DNA of 24,637 nt from a virus. The DNA lies in the UHGV virus genome UHGV-0173695; one strand, written 5' to 3'. Within the stretch, counting starts at the first letter, position 1. The number at the start of each line of letters is the position of its first letter. The position numbers and the translations under genes are program-made. The notes under the pieces are model-generated. The model had not been told where the DNA came from. It saw nothing but the letters and a program-made list of their open reading frames with translations, and made no database searches. Shown piece after piece: positions 15,121 through 24,587 of this stretch.

Positions 15121-15240
15121 ATCGTTTACGGGATTCTGAAATCCCGTTTTTGCCTGTTTTATGCGCGCTTCATATATCGCGGCGCGTTTTTTGCTCATTT
15201 ACGGGATTTGTGAATCCCGTTTCTGTCTGTTTTTTGTTTC
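15121..15240. repeat. parC-like region: two imperfect direct repeats of about 36 bp, each with the palindrome ACGGGATT-N4-AATCCCGT, upstream of parM
   Basis: Palindromes at 15128-15147 and 15201-15220, 73 bp apart, each followed by a T-rich tail (TTTTTGCCTGTTTT / TTTCTGTCTGTTTT). The first lies between the A stop and the parM start; the second lies within the last codons of A. Confidence 0.5.
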
Positions 15241-17992
15241 CACTGGTCAGGCCACCCCGCAGCAGGTCTGCTTTGCGGCGGGCGCGTTCAGTGGTTTCAC
15301 TGATTCTCTGTGCGTGCTCTGCGTCGCGGATGGCGCGCAGCATGTCAGAAAGCACGGTAACGGGTGTTTTCATGGTGTTCTGGTCTTGCTGAAGTGTGGA
15401 TGCCAGGCGTGCGGCGGCTTCGGGGTCTGATGTCCCCAGCTGTTCCAGATAGCTGGCGACCGGGTTATGGCGGATCTCCGTACTGCTTACGCCGTGGTTA
15501 CGGCTCAGGCGCTGCCAGAGCTGCGTGATCCGGCTGTCCGGTCGGGTATCCGGTTTGCGTACAATTTCAAATCCCTGCGGTGCAATGTTGCTGCCGTCAA
15601 CGTACAGACTGCCGCCCCGTAACAGGTGCTGCATCTGCTGTTCACCGATATGCAGGCCGAGAGATTCAGCAGACTCCCGCCATTCTTTAGCGAGTAGTTC
15701 GTGGTTATCAGGCAAAGGCCGCTGCTGTTTGCGGCTCTGTGTCCAGCTCTGCATTTCATCACGGCTGTTTTTTGCCTGTTTGTCACGAAGCGAACGCATC
15801 AGCGCCCGGCGTTCGTGCCGTTTCAGTGAGCGCATCCATTCGTTCACTTCAACGCCGTCAGGGAGCTGCGGCCACGGTGCTGGCCGTTCTTCCGGCTGTT
15901 CTGTCCCGTTGTTGTCCGTTTCCTGTACACGGGGACAGTTATTGCCACGAGTCCAAGGGGCGGCAGGGCCGCCCTGAAGGTCAAAACCATTTTCGTGGGC
16001 GTTGTCTTCTGGTTCTGGTTTACGTCTTACCAACTTCCAGTTATCCGGATGCGTGCACACACGGGAGGATTCCCCGATGAGTGGTGACCAGATCCCGTAA
16101 ATCTGTACGCTCTGTTCGCCGTAATCGTTCAGCTCATCTGCGAGGTCGTAGGCGGTGCGAATCAGGTAGTCCTTGCGTGGAACAAGCACGCCACCCTGTT
16201 TTTCAATGTAGGTGGCAAAACACCCGGCATCGGCGGCAGCGAGTACCGCATCCATTGCATCATCTTTCAGCCGTTGCGGGCCTTCCGGATTGCGTGCCAT
16301 CTGGCTGGCAAGGCGGCGCAGTTCACGCCACACCTGACGGGAGGGGATGCCAAAGAACTGGAACTGACGGACCCGGTGAAGGCGCGCCCAGCCGATGGCG
16401 CGCTCCACGCTCTCGGCCATTGATTTTCCGGTTTCGTGGTCAACGCGTGGCTTGCCCGTTTTCGGGTCGATGCCATCCACGGCGCGGCTGTCCAGGTTCT
16501 TTCCGATGTAGGTAGCGATGTAGCTGGTTGGTGTGCCTTTTGAGCCGTCGACATACTCCGCCTTAAAACGCGGAGTTATGTCATCGCCCAGCTCGTGGCG
16601 GTCCTCCTGAATGGCAATATCGCAGACGTGGGACACGATGGTTTCAATCTCGTCCGGATGTGCAAAGACCATCATATGCCAGTGCACAGTGCCGTCATGG
16701 TGAGGCTCCACCGTGCGGATGCCATACCAGCGCAGGCCGTCGCGGTTCAGTTTTTTGCGGACCGCCGCAAAAAACGTGTTAACCAGGTAATCGCTGGAGT
16801 CGCGCATGGTGGCCCCGTTCCATTTGGGGTTCGGATGACCGTTCTCCGTTGTTGCGTGGTATTTTGACGGGCAGGTGACGGTCAGAAACACCGCTCTGTC
16901 GCCACGGGCTTCGGCCAGAAGTTCCAGTCCCTTCATGGTGGCCATCATTTCTGCCTTACGGTGAACCGGGTTACTTACTCCCGCGTAATACACCGTCTCG
17001 AGATCAATCGTGAACCCGTCTTCATTTTCCAGCGTGAAACTTTTCAGGAAATCGCGTGTTTTCTCGCGCTGTGCGCGAAACTCGCTTAACGCGTCCTGGC
17101 TCAGATAGGGCGATGTTTTTCTGGAAACCAGACAGGCGGCGCGGAGTTGTTCTTCCCGCCACTCGCAACGTAACAGCCACAGTTTGCGTTTCCACCATTC
17201 CGCACAGGTCAGGCGAAGGATTGCGCCCGGCAGCAGCTCCGTGTCTGGTTCGTTCCTCCGGTCTTTGTCTGTTGTCAGTGCGTCATAATGTGGAGGCATG
17301 GCGTGCAGGTGTAACGCCATGCGGGCCAGCATCTGATACGCCTTCAGCGTTACATCCATGGTCAGCTCGCCATCGGTCGCGCCAAAGCCATCGCAGAGTT
17401 TTTCGAAGGTGCTGCTGAACATCGCCGCCGTCATGGTGGCCAGCGTCTGTATCTGGTGTTTGTTGAGCTGCGGCAGGTAAAGCAAATCGTCCAGGCGTTC
17501 GCGTCCGGCAAGGGAGCGATAACCCGGTGTCAGCCAGCGGTGATCGGTGCGGTCCAGACGTTCGAATATTTTGCGCAGGGTTCCGCGTGCATAGCGTTCC
17601 GCCTGCCAGCTCTTTTTGCCTTTCCGGCGATCGGCTTCCTGTTTTTTGCGCAGGAAGGAGAGGTGGCGAATAAGCGGATCGCGCAGATAGGACGGCAGCA
17701 GGCGCAGCGAGGCCATGGCTTCATCCACTGCGCCGCGTGCCTGTTTTCTGGCGTCTCCTGCCAGTGTGATGGTTTTGTCCTGTTTTTCCTGTGCGTCCAG
17801 GCTTTTATTAATCAGGTTGCCCAGCGGCGTGGCGGAGAACGCCGCATCAGCCATTTCCTTGCGGCGCTCGTTCTCTGCCCGGTAGGCATCCAGCCAGGAG
17901 GAAAGCGCGGATTCAGGAGCGGGGATCCCCGTTCCTTCACGCCCCACTGCGTGGCGCGGTTGTTGCCAGTCCCTGATGTACTCTGCCGTCAT
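15170..17992 (-). CDS. A: Replication initiation protein A (rolling-circle endonuclease), P2 gpA family
   Basis: 940 aa; contains HWHMMVFAH and TSYIATYIGKNLD (HUH-type and catalytic-Tyr motifs of gpA-like initiators). Longer than the roughly 761 aa recalled for P2 gpA. Confidence 0.9.
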   Translation of the reverse strand: MTAEYIRDWQQPRHAVGREGTGIPAPESALSSWLDAYRAENERRKEMADAAFSATPLGNLINKSLDAQEKQDKTITLAGDARKQARGAVDEAMASLRLLPSYLRDPLIRHLSFLRKKQEADRRKGKKSWQAERYARGTLRKIFERLDRTDHRWLTPGYRSLAGRERLDDLLYLPQLNKHQIQTLATMTAAMFSSTFEKLCDGFGATDGELTMDVTLKAYQMLARMALHLHAMPPHYDALTTDKDRRNEPDTELLPGAILRLTCAEWWKRKLWLLRCEWREEQLRAACLVSRKTSPYLSQDALSEFRAQREKTRDFLKSFTLENEDGFTIDLETVYYAGVSNPVHRKAEMMATMKGLELLAEARGDRAVFLTVTCPSKYHATTENGHPNPKWNGATMRDSSDYLVNTFFAAVRKKLNRDGLRWYGIRTVEPHHDGTVHWHMMVFAHPDEIETIVSHVCDIAIQEDRHELGDDITPRFKAEYVDGSKGTPTSYIATYIGKNLDSRAVDGIDPKTGKPRVDHETGKSMAESVERAIGWARLHRVRQFQFFGIPSRQVWRELRRLASQMARNPEGPQRLKDDAMDAVLAAADAGCFATYIEKQGGVLVPRKDYLIRTAYDLADELNDYGEQSVQIYGIWSPLIGESSRVCTHPDNWKLVRRKPEPEDNAHENGFDLQGGPAAPWTRGNNCPRVQETDNNGTEQPEERPAPWPQLPDGVEVNEWMRSLKRHERRALMRSLRDKQAKNSRDEMQSWTQSRKQQRPLPDNHELLAKEWRESAESLGLHIGEQQMQHLLRGGSLYVDGSNIAPQGFEIVRKPDTRPDSRITQLWQRLSRNHGVSSTEIRHNPVASYLEQLGTSDPEAAARLASTLQQDQNTMKTPVTVLSDMLRAIRDAEHAQRISETTERARRKADLLRGGLTSGNKKQTETGFTNPVNEQKTRRDI

Positions 17993-18598: not shown

Positions 18599-18669
18599 GG
18601 TCTTATCTCCGTGACAGGGATGTGCGAAGGCCTCCCGCCGCAAGGTGCAGGAAAGGCCCGGAACAGGAA

Positions 18670-18900
18670 TTAACGGAGTTTGTTTTGCTGCTGGATGAGC
18701 TGCTGAAGCTCGTACAAATCATCCGCCAGATAGCTAAAAACAGAGGCGGAATAAGTGTTTGATAGCGCATGACTGCGCTCATGCAGCATATTGATGTGCA
18801 TGATTTGCGCGACGCGTGATGCGCGGAAAAGTCTGCGGTTGATTTCAGTCTGGATGTGACGACGCTCCGCGATAGCGCGGTGCTGTTTGCGGTTTGCCAT
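18670..18900 (-). CDS. Hypothetical early protein, 76 aa, basic
   Basis: Complete ORF; no Cys, so not an Ogr-type zinc finger; follows a 320-bp non-coding region. Confidence 0.45.
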   Translation of the reverse strand: MANRKQHRAIAERRHIQTEINRRLFRASRVAQIMHINMLHERSHALSNTYSASVFSYLADDLYELQQLIQQQNKLR

Positions 18901-19079
18901 GGTGTGGCCTCTGTAGTTGCAAGTTTTGAAAACTCACCATCCAGAGGTGGAAAACTCGGGGTGGTGAGACGTACAGGGTTTCCACAACCGGCAACTACAG
19001 AACCCGGCCCGACCGAAGTCGGCCCCGTACGCCCCACCATAATTCGTGTGCGAAAAAGACGTGGCGATACAGTACACAC

Positions 19080-19100
19080 AAAAAAACCGCTGGCGCGGTT
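19080..19100 (-). terminator. Weak terminator-like hairpin on the minus strand (AACCGC-gcca-GCGGTT followed by a T-run)
   Basis: Plus strand AAAAAAACCGCTGGCGCGGTT; short stem, so low confidence. Confidence 0.3.
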
Positions 19101-19220
19101 GTGCGCTGTAGTTGTCAGCGGGGTGGAAATCCCGGCACCCGTTTTATGAGATGCAGCGGAAATGTAACCTGACTGATTGCGGCATGGCAAGCAGTTTTTT
19201 TGTGTGTGCATGATGATTAC

Positions 19221-19966: not shown

Positions 19967-20266
19967 TTACTGGTTAAGGAAAAAATCAAAAACCTTGTCG
20001 ATGCGTTGCAGTAGCTCTCGTTGCATTGCTTCCGGCGTTTCTGGTTCACCAGGCGAACCCAGTGGTGCGCAGAAATCAGCGATTTCATGATGGAGCGCCA
20101 GGCGAATGGCTGGAGACATGGTTCTGGCGTGCTCCAGCTCATCCAGCAGTGCCAGCACGGCAGACGGCGAGAGCATTGCGCGAAACGCCAGTAATTTTTG
20201 ATGCGTTGCCATTCGTTGCAGGTCAATCGCCAGTTCGCGTAATTCCTGATGGTTGATGGCGCTCAT
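19967..20266 (-). CDS. Hypothetical early protein, 99 aa
   Basis: Complete ORF whose start overlaps the stop of the upstream gene. Confidence 0.45.
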   Translation of the reverse strand: MSAINHQELRELAIDLQRMATHQKLLAFRAMLSPSAVLALLDELEHARTMSPAIRLALHHEIADFCAPLGSPGEPETPEAMQRELLQRIDKVFDFFLNQ

Positions 20267-20508
20267 GCTCTGGCTTCCTTCAGTAGCTGGTTAAACATGT
20301 TGGTAAGTGGATTGCCGCACCCGAACGGCATCGGGTTTATCTGGTAAGAAAAGCGACCGCCTGTTCTGCGCTCTTTTCTTATGACTGAACCGCTGCGCCA
20401 GAGTCGGCGTAACTCCGCATTAATGGCTGTGGTTGGGGTATTCAGTGCTGCGGCGATTTCTCCACCGCTACACCCCGGATTGGCGGCGATGTAGTCCAGA
20501 ATGGTCAT
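20263..20508 (-). CDS. Putative winged-helix DNA-binding protein, 81 aa
   Basis: N-terminus MTILDYIAANPGCSGGEIAAALNTPTTAINAELRRLWRSGSV resembles a winged-HTH fold; overlaps neighbours at both ends. Confidence 0.5.
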   Translation of the reverse strand: MTILDYIAANPGCSGGEIAAALNTPTTAINAELRRLWRSGSVIRKERRTGGRFSYQINPMPFGCGNPLTNMFNQLLKEARA

Positions 20509-20708
20509 CTGCGTGACTCCTGTACCTGTCTGATAAGATTCACCTGCACCACGTTGGTGGCGCAGAAGTAAGTGTCGTCAGTGAGATAAATGTGATGCGC
20601 GTCAGGTTGCGAACGGTGACGGTCGAGCGTTTTAATCAGCCGTTCGTCAACTTCGTATTCACGTCCTCTGGAAGTGAAACGAACGACGGTAAATCGCTTA
20701 ATTGCCAT
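20505..20708 (-). CDS. Hypothetical early protein, 67 aa
   Basis: AAGGAGG Shine-Dalgarno 4-5 nt upstream of the ATG. Confidence 0.5.
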   Translation of the reverse strand: MAIKRFTVVRFTSRGREYEVDERLIKTLDRHRSQPDAHHIYLTDDTYFCATNVVQVNLIRQVQESRR

Positions 20709-20794
20709 TGCGCCTCCTTGGCGTGTGCGAATACCTCCGCGAATGCGGATTGTTTTTACATTTTCTTATCTAACCTGTGGTTTTATTTGCTCTG

Positions 20795-20908
20795 TTATTC
20801 GCCAGTGAAAAAGCGTTCAATCTTTTTTACTGAATGAATAATTCGCATAATCCCAATGGCGCAGGCCACCGAAATAATCAGAACAAGCCATGAGATAAAT
20901 ATACTCAT
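20795..20908 (-). CDS. Candidate small membrane peptide, 37 aa (MSIFISWLVLIISVACAIGIMRIIHSVKKIERFFTGE)
   Basis: ORF below the track size cutoff, found by hand translation; ATG overlaps the stop of the upstream 81-aa gene (ATGA); one predicted TM helix then a basic tail. Confidence 0.3.
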   Translation of the reverse strand: MSIFISWLVLIISVACAIGIMRIIHSVKKIERFFTGE

Positions 20909-21150
20909 GCAATATTCCCCAGCTTATACGGTTCAATATGTTCCCCGCATTCTGCGGCACAGATCAGCTCGGAAAGTTCGTTAAGTGCATCCAGATCATC
21001 AGCGTAAAAAGCCACGTCATACAGACTCCGGATTGCCCTGGTCAATGAGTCACGGGCTGCACGTTCAGCATGAGCGCCTGATGCACTTAAGCGAAAATAA
21101 AATCGTTCAAGTGCTTTGTTAATGAGAGTTTTATATTCTTTGCCCATCAC
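20905..21150 (-). CDS. Hypothetical early protein, 81 aa
   Basis: Complete ORF in the early operon orientation. Confidence 0.45.
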   Translation of the reverse strand: MMGKEYKTLINKALERFYFRLSASGAHAERAARDSLTRAIRSLYDVAFYADDLDALNELSELICAAECGEHIEPYKLGNIA

Positions 21151-21158
21151 AACGCCCT

Positions 21159-21437
21159 TTAATCTGCTTTCTTAATTTCAGCTTCTGAATCCATACAAAT
21201 AATTTCGATATAGGGTTCATCGCTATTAGCCTGGCGCGCTTTTTCAGCTTCGTTAATGGCTTCGCGAACGGTCTGGTACGGAAGCTCCACGATCAGTTGT
21301 GCGTTGTTCGCATAAACGTGAGTAACTGCTTTTTTTTCTGCCTGGGCTACAGCATCAATAGCTGATGCACGTAATAACAGTTCACCGCGAAAATCAATAA
21401 AACGGATAAATACACCTTGTGCATGCTCTTTGGTCAT
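21159..21437 (-). CDS. Hypothetical early protein, 92 aa
   Basis: Internal start MTKEHAQG at 21437, just after the upstream stop; the track ORF start at 21497 would overlap the upstream gene by 50 nt. Confidence 0.45.
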   Translation of the reverse strand: MTKEHAQGVFIRFIDFRGELLLRASAIDAVAQAEKKAVTHVYANNAQLIVELPYQTVREAINEAEKARQANSDEPYIEIICMDSEAEIKKAD

Positions 21438-21447
21438 AAAGCACCTG

Positions 21448-21798
21448 TTATAAATCAGCCTGTTTAATAAAACTTTGCCCGCGAAGCAGACGATCAACCG
21501 TGCGAAGTGCTTCGTATAATGTGAAATCCTGCCCGAATTGATTGTCGCCGCAGCTCAATGCAAAAATGCGGTTTCCGGTAAACGGATTGCGTGGGCATTT
21601 GTGGACCACGATTCCAGCTTTCTCAATCAGCCAGGCATGCTCGCCGATTTGTTTTACTGGGTAGCCATCCGGCGTTGCGTGTGTTTCGCTCAGGCTGTAG
21701 CGAGAGTTGCTACGTGATGCACTGGTAGCGAAACGGTTAGCATGGCGTTCCGCACCGTTGCGGAAGCGCTGCTGTGAAGAATTGCGCTGTAGTTTCAT
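21448..21798 (-). CDS. Hypothetical early protein, 116 aa
   Basis: Complete ORF with a single possible ATG start. Confidence 0.45.
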   Translation of the reverse strand: MKLQRNSSQQRFRNGAERHANRFATSASRSNSRYSLSETHATPDGYPVKQIGEHAWLIEKAGIVVHKCPRNPFTGNRIFALSCGDNQFGQDFTLYEALRTVDRLLRGQSFIKQADL

Positions 21799-22131: not shown

Positions 22132-22554
22132 TTATGCCGGGCTGCTCCCGGCATCTTCTAGCTGCCATAATGTCTCGTCACCTGATAGAGCAAAACGAAA
22201 TGAGTGAAGTATATCCTCCCGAGAGAAGCTCACGGCTACAGCTGCGGGAAAGTCAAATATAATCCCACCTTCATTTTTAAAACGATTACGCAATTGATAG
22301 GCTATCGGTTTGATTTGCGCAGGAAGAGTATCTACATCTCTTCCATTGACAACAGAATCTTTGTTTTCCAGTACTGATTTAGCGATTAGATATAGATGCC
22401 AGTAACTGGTTACAATTGTTACTCCTGTGATGTGTCGTAAATTAATTGCAATTCGTCCGTTATTATGTTTTTCCGCAAGGTATTTCAGGTTATCAATTAA
22501 TGCTTGGTCATTTTTTGAAATAGTTATTGTGAAATCTGACGTGTTTGTTTTCAT
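22132..22554 (-). CDS. Hypothetical protein, 140 aa, AT-rich; possible moron downstream of cox
   Basis: Internal start MKTNTSDF at 22554, 4 bp after the cox-like stop. The track ORF 22132..22797 has a low-complexity N-terminal extension overlapping the cox-like frame. The sequence is visibly AT-rich compared with the flanking phage genes. Confidence 0.5.
   Translation of the reverse strand: MKTNTSDFTITISKNDQALIDNLKYLAEKHNNGRIAINLRHITGVTIVTSYWHLYLIAKSVLENKDSVVNGRDVDTLPAQIKPIAYQLRNRFKNEGGIIFDFPAAVAVSFSREDILHSFRFALSGDETLWQLEDAGSSPA
22136..22152. terminator. GC hairpin GCCGGG-ctgct-CCCGGC between convergent ORFs (possible bidirectional terminator)
   Basis: Perfect 6-bp inverted repeat 11 bp after the plus-strand ORF stop, overlapping the last codons of the minus-strand ORF. 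Confidence 0.4.
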
Positions 22555-22558
22555 ACGA

Positions 22559-23080
22559 TTAGTTGCCTCTGTTGTTTCTGAGTTGGTCCAGTTTTGAGCT
22601 TCTGCCTGTATAAACTCGCTTACCGTTAATGGTCTGGCAGTCTTCTTTATTAGCTGGAGAGAACTTCCTTTTCTGGCGGTCATACGTCCAGTAACTTTTC
22701 CAGTTGTGCCATTCTGGGGGCTCGTGCTCTGGTAGCTCATCAGCCAACTTGTCCCACTCTTTGGCGTTAAACCACCATACTCCGTCTGAGTTTTCATCTT
22801 CCGGGTTTGTGCGCGTCTTGTGTCCCGGCATTTGACCGCGATGAATGGCTACGCGCAGTGCAGATTTTGTTAGCCCAATATATGCCGCGCCTTTTTCCAG
22901 AGAGCAAAGCCCGGCGATCGGACCATCCAGCCGTAAAGTCGCTCCTTTTTTGTAGGAACGCTTTTTCTTGTTTTCTTCGTGTTCGTCGTCGTTGGCGGCA
23001 TCAATGGATCCGCTGAGTGCGTCACTTTCCTGAAGTGGTTGGTGGTCAGATAACTCTTTATCGGCAATGAAGTCCCGCAT
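22559..23080 (-). CDS. cox: Cox/Apl-like excisionase-type DNA-binding regulator, extended form (173 aa)
   Basis: First gene of the early operon, divergent from C. Central region AYIGLTKSALRVAIHRGQMPGHK...GVWWFNAKEW parallels the P2 Cox pattern (HTH then an aromatic-rich segment) as I recall it. Has an acidic N-terminal extension and a Trp-rich C-terminal extension absent from the 91-aa P2 Cox. Confidence 0.6.
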   Translation of the reverse strand: MRDFIADKELSDHQPLQESDALSGSIDAANDDEHEENKKKRSYKKGATLRLDGPIAGLCSLEKGAAYIGLTKSALRVAIHRGQMPGHKTRTNPEDENSDGVWWFNAKEWDKLADELPEHEPPEWHNWKSYWTYDRQKRKFSPANKEDCQTINGKRVYTGRSSKLDQLRNNRGN

Positions 23081-23183
23081 TTGTTATCCTCTTGCGTTGG
23101 TGCGCTTGTTGCGCCTTGTGATGGTTTGTTTTGGTTTGTTTTCTTCACCCTGTGGTGAAGAGTAAAAAGAGGATACTCATCGT
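23081..23183. promoter_or_regulatory. Immunity switch region with divergent promoters (Pe leftward, Pc rightward) and operator-like repeats
   Basis: Tandem direct repeat GGTTTGTTTT x2 (23123-23142) followed by inverted repeat TTCACC-ctgt-GGTGAA (23144-23159), between divergent cox and C. P2 C repressor is known to bind direct repeats flanking the early promoter. Confidence 0.5.
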
Positions 23184-23525
23184 ATGGTGAACATGTCAAG
23201 AGATTACGCCAAAAAACTAAAGGCGATCAGAAATGCGGAAAAACTTACACAATCTCAGTTTTCGCAAGTAACGGGGGTTTCTGTAGGGACTATAGGAAAT
23301 TATGAGTCTGGATATAAACCTGCGCGCATTGAGGTTGTAGAAAAAGTAATCCAAGTCGAGCGATTCGAAAAATACACTATGTGGATACTTCACGACAAAA
23401 CATTTCCCGCTGCCGGGCAGGTTGCTCCGGCTCTCTCTCTTGATGGCTCTATTCAGTCGGAGGGCGATCAGGTTTCAATCGGTATTACCCAAAAATCACC
23501 CCGATCAGGCCGCAATGTTGGCTGA
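23184..23525 (+). CDS. C: Immunity repressor, P2 C-type
   Basis: 113 aa; KLKAIRNAEKLTQSQFSQVTGVSVGTIGNYESG...FEKYTMWIL...GQVAPAL parallels P2 C as I recall it. Start could be 23184 or the in-frame ATG at 23193. Confidence 0.85.
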   Translation: MVNMSRDYAKKLKAIRNAEKLTQSQFSQVTGVSVGTIGNYESGYKPARIEVVEKVIQVERFEKYTMWILHDKTFPAAGQVAPALSLDGSIQSEGDQVSIGITQKSPRSGRNVG

Positions 23526-23594: not shown

Positions 23595-24587
23595 ATGTCG
23601 ATTAAGCAACTCAAAGACGGACGTTATCAGGTCGATGTCAGACCGCAGGGGGCGGAAGGAAAGCGGATTCGAAAAATCTTTGCCCTGAAATCAAAGGCTC
23701 AGGAGTTTGAGAAGTATGTGTTACAGAACTTTCATGACAAGCCATGGCAGGCTAAGCCAGCTGATCAGCGGCGATTATCAGAGCTGCTTGATGCGTGGTG
23801 GATGCTTGATGGGCGTAATCAGGCTTACGGGGATAGCTACAGGGTTAGGCTAGGGAAGGTTGTTCGTGAAATGGGAGATCCTCGCGCCAGTCAGATGACG
23901 CGAAAATTTATGCTTGAATATCGGTCAGAGAAATTACAGGCCGGATTAATGCCGTCCAGTATTAATCGTGACTTATGCGTACTGTCTACCATGTTCACGG
24001 TGCTGATTGAAGCTGAGGTCTTTCACAACGCGAACCCTGTACGCGGTATACGAAAACTGAAAGTTCAGAACACAGAGATGGCCTTTCTTTCTGATGATGA
24101 GATTGAACGGCTTCTTGAGCGACTGGAGGGTGATGCGCGTCGTGTTGCCATTCTGTGTCTTTCTACTGGTGCCCGATGGAGTGAAGCATCGGAACTACGT
24201 GGAGAGCATATCGTTGGCAACCGGGTGACGTTCTTTAACACCAAAAACGGAAAATCCCGTTCGGTTCCTGTGGCGGATTCGGTCGTGCCTCTGATTAAAA
24301 CCCGTCGAACGGGGTTATTGTATCAGGTTGATTATCTGAAGTTCCGGGAGATTCTTCAGGAGGTGAAACCGGATTTGCCGAAGGGGCAGGCTACGCATGT
24401 CATGCGTCATACATTTGCCACACACTTTATGATGAATGGCGGAAATATTGTTACGTTGCAACGAATCCTGGGGCACGCAACGATTCAGCAAACAATGACG
24501 TACGCTCATTTTTCGCCGGACTTCTTACAGGACGCGATCAACTTTAATCCGCTGGCTGAAAGTGTCCATAAACTGTCCATCGATTAG
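23595..24587 (+). CDS. int: Tyrosine integrase (P2 Int family)
   Basis: 330 aa; C-terminal catalytic region HVMRHTFATHFMMNGGNIVTLQRILGHATIQQTMTYAHF (R-H-x-x-R...Y); located after C and at the prophage edge as in P2. Confidence 0.95.
   Translation: MSIKQLKDGRYQVDVRPQGAEGKRIRKIFALKSKAQEFEKYVLQNFHDKPWQAKPADQRRLSELLDAWWMLDGRNQAYGDSYRVRLGKVVREMGDPRASQMTRKFMLEYRSEKLQAGLMPSSINRDLCVLSTMFTVLIEAEVFHNANPVRGIRKLKVQNTEMAFLSDDEIERLLERLEGDARRVAILCLSTGARWSEASELRGEHIVGNRVTFFNTKNGKSRSVPVADSVVPLIKTRRTGLLYQVDYLKFREILQEVKPDLPKGQATHVMRHTFATHFMMNGGNIVTLQRILGHATIQQTMTYAHFSPDFLQDAINFNPLAESVHKLSID

Follow-up and report, generated by a model that had tools for sequence, protein, structure and literature searches.

A conserved gene for a predicted single-helix membrane protein behind DUF4754 in the early operon of a P88-like Escherichia coli prophage

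The stretch of DNA analysed here (the window, 24,637 nucleotides) is, as judged from its sequence, a P88-like prophage of E. coli, namely, of a temperate phage of the P2 family (Peduoviridae, Xuanwuvirus). The 1.2 kb around the small open reading frame (ORF) that is the subject of this work is 99% identical to Escherichia phage P88 and to E. coli chromosomal prophages, and the region is matched in 1369 of 5426 complete E. coli genomes. The relevant genes and features, listed from the integrase towards the replication genes, are the following:

23595-24587, strand opposite to the operon: integrase gene
23184-23525, strand opposite to the operon: gene of a HTH repressor
23170-23199, minus strand: sigma-70-like promoter TTGACA-18-TATCCT upstream of the Cox ORF, presumed early promoter Pe
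22559-23080, minus strand: Cox-domain ORF of 173 aa, first in the minus-strand gene order
22132-22797, minus strand: ORF of 221 aa with no Pfam match, between the Cox ORF and DUF4761
21448-21798, minus strand: DUF4761 gene, a member of the conserved early-operon core
21159-21437, minus strand: gene of a PHROG 3800 hypothetical protein, present only in some lineages
20905-21147, minus strand: DUF4754 (PF15946) gene of 80 aa, directly upstream of the small ORF and its constant neighbour
20915-20920, minus strand: Shine-Dalgarno-like GGGGAA inside the DUF4754 coding end, with its last G at 20917, 8 nt from the ATG
20905-20908, minus strand: ATGA start/stop overlap with DUF4754, present in every lineage examined
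20795-20908, minus strand: small ORF with ATG start, 37 codons and TAA stop; product MSIFISWLVLIISVACAIGIMRIIHSVKKIERFFTGE
20846-20902, minus strand: codons 3-21 (IFISWLVLIISVACAIGIM), predicted transmembrane helix with conserved S6, W7, L10, A17 and G19
20798-20845, minus strand: codons 22-37 (RIIHSVKKIERFFTGE), amphipathic, positively charged tail, predicted to be cytoplasmic
20709-20794, minus strand: spacer of 86 nt, 3' of the small ORF, which ends in a strong Shine-Dalgarno sequence (AAGGAGG) for the next gene
20505-20708, minus strand: gene of 67 aa (PHROG 3459), next after the spacer, not a constant neighbour
20263-20508, minus strand: gene of a MarR-type winged-helix protein, after the 67-aa gene
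Minus strand, after the MarR-type gene and before further genes: gene of an Ead/Ea22-like protein
15170-17992, minus strand: replication gene A, downstream of the small ORF in operon order

The coordinates given for the small ORF in an earlier note on this DNA, which had been made from the letters alone and did not state the strand, are exact, and the strand is minus. The product is 100% identical to P88 SF19_gp07 (YP_009113050.1) and to RefSeq WP_000021656.1, and the genes encoding them do not differ from the window ORF in any respect considered here: they share its amino-acid sequence, its place behind DUF4754, and its phage group. The names in the public records are "membrane protein" for P88 SF19_gp07, "hypothetical protein" (assigned by PGAP) for WP_000021656.1, and "Prophage membrane protein" in UniProt, and none of these three records contains functional information. 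The small ORF is thus not a new discovery, as GenBank and RefSeq already annotate the gene. What our analysis adds is the comparative proof that it is a gene, the description of its family in forms of 37, 41, and 45 aa, and its fixed pairing with DUF4754.

The order of genes, together with the Pe-like promoter, is that of a classical P2-type early (Pe) operon, so that the location of the small ORF in an early operon, as proposed in the earlier note, holds: the integrase, HTH repressor, Cox ORF, DUF4761, and DUF4754 genes lie upstream of it, gene A lies downstream, and the promoter is on the same strand. The site at 23199-23170 is the sole strong promoter-like site on the operon strand, and no sense-strand terminator was found behind the small ORF. 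The only early genes that are retained across all deep lineages (loci L087-L095 and L178-L183) are DUF4761, DUF4754, and the small gene, while the genes of the PHROG 3800, 67-aa, MarR, and Ead/Ea22 proteins vary among these lineages.

Two other features of this region were observed in passing. The Cox ORF and the 221-aa ORF overlap by 239 nt in different frames, and the Cox domain comprises only residues 58-129 of the 173-aa ORF; the immunity region here is unlike that of P88. Farther downstream, matches to the C4 antisense RNA (18957-19044, minus strand, 80.5 bits) and to the isrK Hfq-binding RNA (19080-19154, minus strand, 61.4 bits), both at the Rfam gathering level, are located inside or adjoining an Ash-family ORF (18603-19211). 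Judging by these matches, the segment 18957-19154 resembles a regulatory module of the c4 antisense type of P1/P7 or of the IsrK type, situated in a P2-family early region, and it is missing at this place in P88.

An ORF of 37 codons may be open by chance, and its apparent conservation may reflect a DNA or RNA element or recent common ancestry. The shortness of the ORF and its weak Shine-Dalgarno sequence are consistent with such an explanation, and the closest relatives do little to decide the matter. In a sample of 164 related loci, reduced to 80 distinct haplotypes, the small ORF is intact in 77 (67 of the 37-aa form and 10 of the 45-aa form) and truncated or disrupted in three, while DUF4754 is intact in 79 of the 80. 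As the close copies share 92-99% identity at the DNA level, however, their intactness alone is weak evidence. The three exceptions are an error-ridden phage record, an early frameshift, and a 30-aa version in the viable phage Chuche. In the first of these records (Escherichia phage 503458, NC_049341; positions 100-520 of locus L084), several indels break both DUF4754 and the small ORF; these appear to be errors of sequencing, not true variation.

The decisive comparisons come from distant homologs. When 1.84 billion representative proteins were searched exhaustively, nine clusters were obtained, which include 41-aa proteins of 54-68% identity to the query: P0004 (MSVFLSWVILIISVLMAIGIMRIIEALKNIESLFTGEERRK), P0005, and P0007. 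On the contigs encoding these 41-aa homologs, the small gene comes after DUF4754 and overlaps it by the 4 nt ATGA, the pair being flanked by integrase/Cox and by gene A in early operons of the P2 type; the same layout was found in two further lineages of DUF4754. While the small homologs of the deep lineages retain 54-68% identity, their DUF4754 proteins are only 26-52% identical to the window copy, which indicates that the small protein has been conserved better than DUF4754. When differences were summed over four divergent comparisons and evaluated in all six frames, the annotated frame showed 55.5 synonymous differences at 100 synonymous sites, 67.5 non-synonymous differences at 344 non-synonymous sites, and no stop codon (pN/pS of 0.36; Fisher p = 2.4e-11). 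The remaining five frames contain from 4 to 31 stop codons, and just one of them has a pN/pS clearly below 1 (0.59, p = 0.003), the annotated frame being the sole one of the six that is open in all lineages. In pairwise comparisons, pS ranges from 0.5 to 0.9 and pN from 0.19 to 0.31, with pN/pS of 0.25-0.5 in the deep lineages. Although synonymous sites there are near saturation, the reading frame, its length, the start overlap, and the hydrophobic pattern are kept, and no RNA family matches the region (Rfam, positions 20400-21300, E up to 1). These results run against a chance, untranslated ORF, an explanation that we regard as having hardly any chance of being correct. The conservation in related prophages, which the earlier note had named as a check, is therefore borne out both by the frame intact in nearly all haplotypes and by homologs under purifying selection in deep lineages. 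From the pattern of substitutions, the small ORF is almost certainly a functional protein-coding gene.

At the junction of DUF4754 and the small gene, the ATG (20908-20906) and the DUF4754 stop codon TGA (20907-20905) share the ATGA on the minus strand (...GGGGAATATTGC-ATGA-GT...), just as the earlier note had described for the start of the ORF and the stop of an upstream gene. The pairing of the internal GGGGAA with the anti-Shine-Dalgarno sequence (-5.5 kcal/mol) is among the best 14% of window positions. Similar purine runs (GGGGAA, GAGGAG, GAAGGGGA, GAGGTGG) occur 6-10 nt upstream of the ATG in most lineages; the pairing energies across lineages lie between -3.1 and -8.5 kcal/mol (mean of the background, -2.1 kcal/mol), with the weakest lineages at -3.1 and -4.2 kcal/mol. 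The translational coupling proposed in the earlier note is supported: the overlap is of the coupling type and is conserved in all lineages examined, while the coupling itself is our deduction from it. On the evidence of this junction, the small ORF is probably translated through coupling to the termination of DUF4754 translation.

The invariance of this adjacency raises the question of whether the two proteins act together. As the two genes are adjacent and overlap in every sampled lineage, a functional partnership between their products is plausible. In its most specific form, such a partnership would be a two-protein module, in which the small helix serves at the membrane as an anchor or receptor of the DUF4754 protein, which is soluble and helical, while coupled translation sets the ratio of the two. 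In addition to the constant ATGA overlap, the narrow distribution that DUF4754 shares with the small-protein family is in agreement with such a module. The structure predicted for DUF4754 (pLDDT 89) is also compatible with such a module: it is a small bundle of helices, for which a fold search of the PDB gave nothing significant (best E = 1.7). However, the complete co-occurrence of the two genes may have no other cause than the backbone conserved in one phage group, and the two genes can be separated by exchange. In loci L092 and L093 (3762-4126), a sharp mosaic breakpoint is located at the ATGA junction: the small ORFs are identical at the nucleotide level (pS = 0), while the DUF4754 alleles are only 42% identical in protein (pS 0.74). 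This indicates that recombination exactly at the junction has shuffled the alleles, without tight co-evolution of the two proteins. Moreover, no in-frame natural fusion of DUF4754 and the peptide was found; the longer proteins of 103-128 aa that might be taken for such fusions were rejected, as they are frameshift read-throughs in the wrong frame. On balance, we consider the anchoring module a doubtful reading, although one worth keeping in mind.

A profile search with a 41-aa member as the leading sequence extended the family to 148 clusters at 90% identity, with E values down to 1e-21. Their hosts are Escherichia (E. coli, E. albertii, and E. fergusonii) and, occasionally, Salmonella, Shigella, and Citrobacter. 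All 148 clusters are without a Pfam domain, and their names are uninformative. A DUF4754 search of genome contigs gave at least one locus, in E. albertii, and an alignment-based search of viral contigs retrieved near-identical loci only. The limitation of the family to one phage group in Escherichia and its close relatives limits the comparative depth as well. The members fall into three length classes, which differ in their C-termini:

37-aa class: ...KKIERFFT[GED]E
41-aa class: ...IE[SL][LF]FTG[DE]KRRK
45-aa class: ...KKIERFSL[TV]NN[SD]TNKT..

The 45-aa form owes its origin to recurrent gains or losses of frame, each by a change of one base in a homopolymer run (T5-6 or A6) towards the 3' end of the gene (positions 20798-20830 of the window, where the runs are A6 and T5). 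The spacer, read in the +1 frame, supplies the last 12 residues of these alleles (SL[TV]NN[SD]TNKT..), which make up a different polar tail; such alleles are common. The recurrent changes may amount to decay, to variation that is tolerated, or to switching. This class is found in numerous clusters and on contigs of the size of a complete genome, and it has substitutions of its own, which indicates that it represents real alleles and not just sequencing errors. As seen from the frameshift alleles of 45 aa and from the 30-aa version of phage Chuche, the final residues are dispensable in at least some viable phages. Positions conserved in the family are M1, S6, W7, L10, A17, G19, I20, [RK]22, I23, I24, K28, I30, E31, F34, and T35; position 13 is always occupied by a small residue (S or A), and the tail follows the motif [RK]-I-I-x-x-[VIL]-K-x-I-E-x-[FL]-F-T.

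The spacer behind the small ORF is a slot whose cargo varies. In many relatives, one or two extra genes encoding proteins of 105-138 aa (275-770 bp) are inserted at about 20718-20731 in the operon orientation, while neither the window nor P88 has any insertion there. Within the spacer, at 20736-20749 on the plus strand, a terminator-like hairpin TCCGCGAATGCGGA followed by TTGTTTTT lies antisense to the operon and has no T-run in the sense direction. No plus-strand promoter or gene that could feed this hairpin was found in the window. The idea that the hairpin marks antisense cargo was rejected, as the genes inserted in relatives run in the direction of the operon.

The description of the product in the earlier note as a hydrophobic helix followed by a basic tail agrees well with our results. 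Residues 3-21 of the window protein are strongly hydrophobic (summed Hessa scale -2.9 kcal/mol; mean Kyte-Doolittle value 2.68), and the summed Hessa values across the family range from -2.9 to -4.0 kcal/mol. Only two residues, both uncharged, precede this span, while the tail (residues 22-37) has a net charge of +2 in the window protein and of +1 to +3 across the family, and is amphipathic, with a hydrophobic moment of up to 0.84. AlphaFold2, supplied with a 22-sequence alignment, predicts one continuous helix of residues 2-35 (pLDDT 88). By the positive-inside rule, the positive tail places the N-terminus outside and the C-terminus inside. Insertion of the protein into the membrane in this N-out/C-in topology is predicted with high confidence. 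A lipoprotein or a secreted peptide was considered and rejected: there is neither a basic n-region nor a mature domain, and a lipobox is ruled out since Cys16 is not conserved, being replaced by M, F, or I in homologs. The variable positions 15, 25, 26, 29, and 32 cluster on one face of the helix, which is suggestive of one conserved packing face, although the test for it is not strong: when the conservation moment was tested by permutation, p was 0.16 for an angle of 100 degrees and 0.013 for the heptad angle of 102.9 degrees.

Searches for function gave no lead. In Pfam, PHROGs, NCBIfam, and PADLOC, queried with the peptide and with a 41-aa homolog, no meaningful match emerged, the best being PET117 (E = 0.19), phrog_5620 (E = 0.38), and TatA (E = 0.11), and none of the Pfam, PHROG, or NCBIfam models covers the family. 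A profile search of PDB sequences returned chance matches only. No homology to toxin or holin families was detected, even at E values up to 1, nor any to defence or exclusion families. Literature searches concerning the sequence, its accessions, its DUF neighbours, P88/Xuanwuvirus, or small membrane proteins of P2-like early regions yielded nothing on function.

In size, in its single hydrophobic helix, and in its basic tail, the small protein resembles peptides of the Hok, TisB, and Ldr type as well as small holins, which may suggest a membrane-damaging toxin, i.e., a pore former or depolariser like type I toxins or holins that would shut down the host early or contribute to its killing. Several observations argue against this explanation, which we find distinctly improbable. 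Apart from the lack of any toxin or holin family match, neither a promoter of its own nor an opposite-strand promoter-like site was found near the small ORF, and no known antitoxin RNA was found there. The gene belongs to the early operon, as opposed to holins, which are encoded in the late lysis cassette, and a phage that depolarised its host ahead of replication and assembly would harm itself. Its conserved cytoplasmic motif is also unlike what is seen in generic pore formers. The assignment of the protein as a holin or antiholin was likewise rejected, considering the location of its gene away from a late cassette with endolysin and spanins and the absence of a holin family match. The suggestion of a host inhibitor or toxin in the earlier note thus gained no support from our analysis and is no more than a guess.

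Exclusion proteins of the T4 Imm and HK97 gp15 type are small membrane proteins, and the small protein might similarly act during lytic growth to block the entry of further phage DNA at the inner membrane. A predicted small inner-membrane protein that is expressed early, as we infer from the operon, would suit such a role. However, it shows no homology to exclusion or defence families, and no promoter for expression in the lysogen is present, so that we regard exclusion as very unlikely.

The explanation that we favour overall, with modest confidence, is that the gene encodes an accessory small membrane protein of the early lytic stage, which packs against a membrane partner. The small gene would share a transcript from the early lytic promoter with Cox, DUF4761, and DUF4754, and termination at the end of DUF4754 would couple translation of the small ORF through the ATGA, aided by the weak internal Shine-Dalgarno sequence. 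The 37-residue single helix would then enter the inner membrane with two residues in the periplasm, residues 3-21 in the bilayer, and the tail on the cytoplasmic face. There, its conserved face (S6/W7, L10, S/A13, A17, G19-I20-M21, I24, K28, E31, and F34-T35) would pack on a partner helix, which may be that of a host inner-membrane protein, of the small protein itself, or of a phage protein. The protein would thereby modulate its partner rather than simply damage the membrane. The specific conserved motif of the tail and the pattern of small residues in the transmembrane segment point to packing on a partner helix rather than to generic membrane damage. That this partner is one specific protein is a tentative proposal, for which the chances are slightly below even. 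Points that count against the favoured explanation are the weak test for a conserved face, the dispensability of the final residues, the limited comparative depth, and the weak Shine-Dalgarno sequence of some lineages.

A bolder version of the favoured explanation would make the small protein the effector of a new host-takeover module that inhibits an essential inner-membrane machine of E. coli, for example, the divisome, Sec/YidC, FtsH, or a sugar-transporter component. We consider it unlikely, yet it would, if true, provide both a new small-protein inhibitor and its target, and single-pass small proteins encoded by phage early genes have repeatedly proved to be precise inhibitors of host machines. 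By itself, the small gene reveals no new kind of system, and the interest in it hinges on a specific host target. With about a quarter of complete E. coli genomes carrying the region, the peptide is among the commoner uncharacterised small membrane proteins of this species, and a defined partner would serve phage biology and, possibly, the finding of antibacterial targets. At present, the small ORF is best described as a genuine gene of a small single-transmembrane protein of an ordinary phage type, already catalogued.

Several known systems resemble the small protein in part. Type I toxins (Hok/Gef, TisB, Ldr, Ibs, ShoB, and DinQ) are similar to it in having fewer than 50 aa, one hydrophobic helix, and a charged end. 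However, they are produced from a promoter of their own, with a structured leader and an antisense RNA antitoxin, while the small ORF is embedded in an operon and coupled by overlap, with no antisense promoter, Rfam match, or family match. The type I toxin model was rejected on the grounds of promoter, antisense RNA, and family homology. In TatA/TatE, an N-out transmembrane helix is followed by an amphipathic helix, as predicted here, but a 41-aa member matches the NCBIfam model of TatA with only 12.4 bits, where the cut-off is 104, and the residues of the TatA hinge and motif are absent. Identity with TatA/TatE was therefore rejected, the match being explained by hydrophobic composition.

With regard to position, the closest counterparts are the Fil and Dhr genes of phage 186, which are small, non-essential early genes of the P2 family; overexpression of Fil blocks cell division, and Dhr depresses host replication. 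Both are located in the early lytic operon just behind the genes of the lysis-lysogeny switch, in a place equivalent to that of the small ORF. They differ from it in sequence and architecture: BLASTP found nothing, hhalign gave a probability of 0.3%, and neither protein has an N-terminal transmembrane helix. Homology to 186 Fil, which had been prompted by a local likeness (IIRIVH and IMRIIH), was rejected as not significant. No transmembrane helix was found in P2 Orf78 or in other early ORFs of 186 and P2. By analogy with Fil, an effect of the small protein on host growth or division could be imagined, although we do not expect it.

There is also a likeness to small regulatory membrane proteins, such as AcrZ, MgtS, MgrB, and PmrR, and to division inhibitors, such as Caulobacter SidA and DidA and SPO1 gp56, which are single-pass proteins of 30-50 aa. 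Proteins of both groups act by packing on a larger membrane protein, and a conserved small-residue pattern in the transmembrane helix together with a conserved juxtamembrane tail is typical of such action. The small protein described here shares the architecture of these regulators and inhibitors but has no homology to them, and the likeness is one of kind, not of family.
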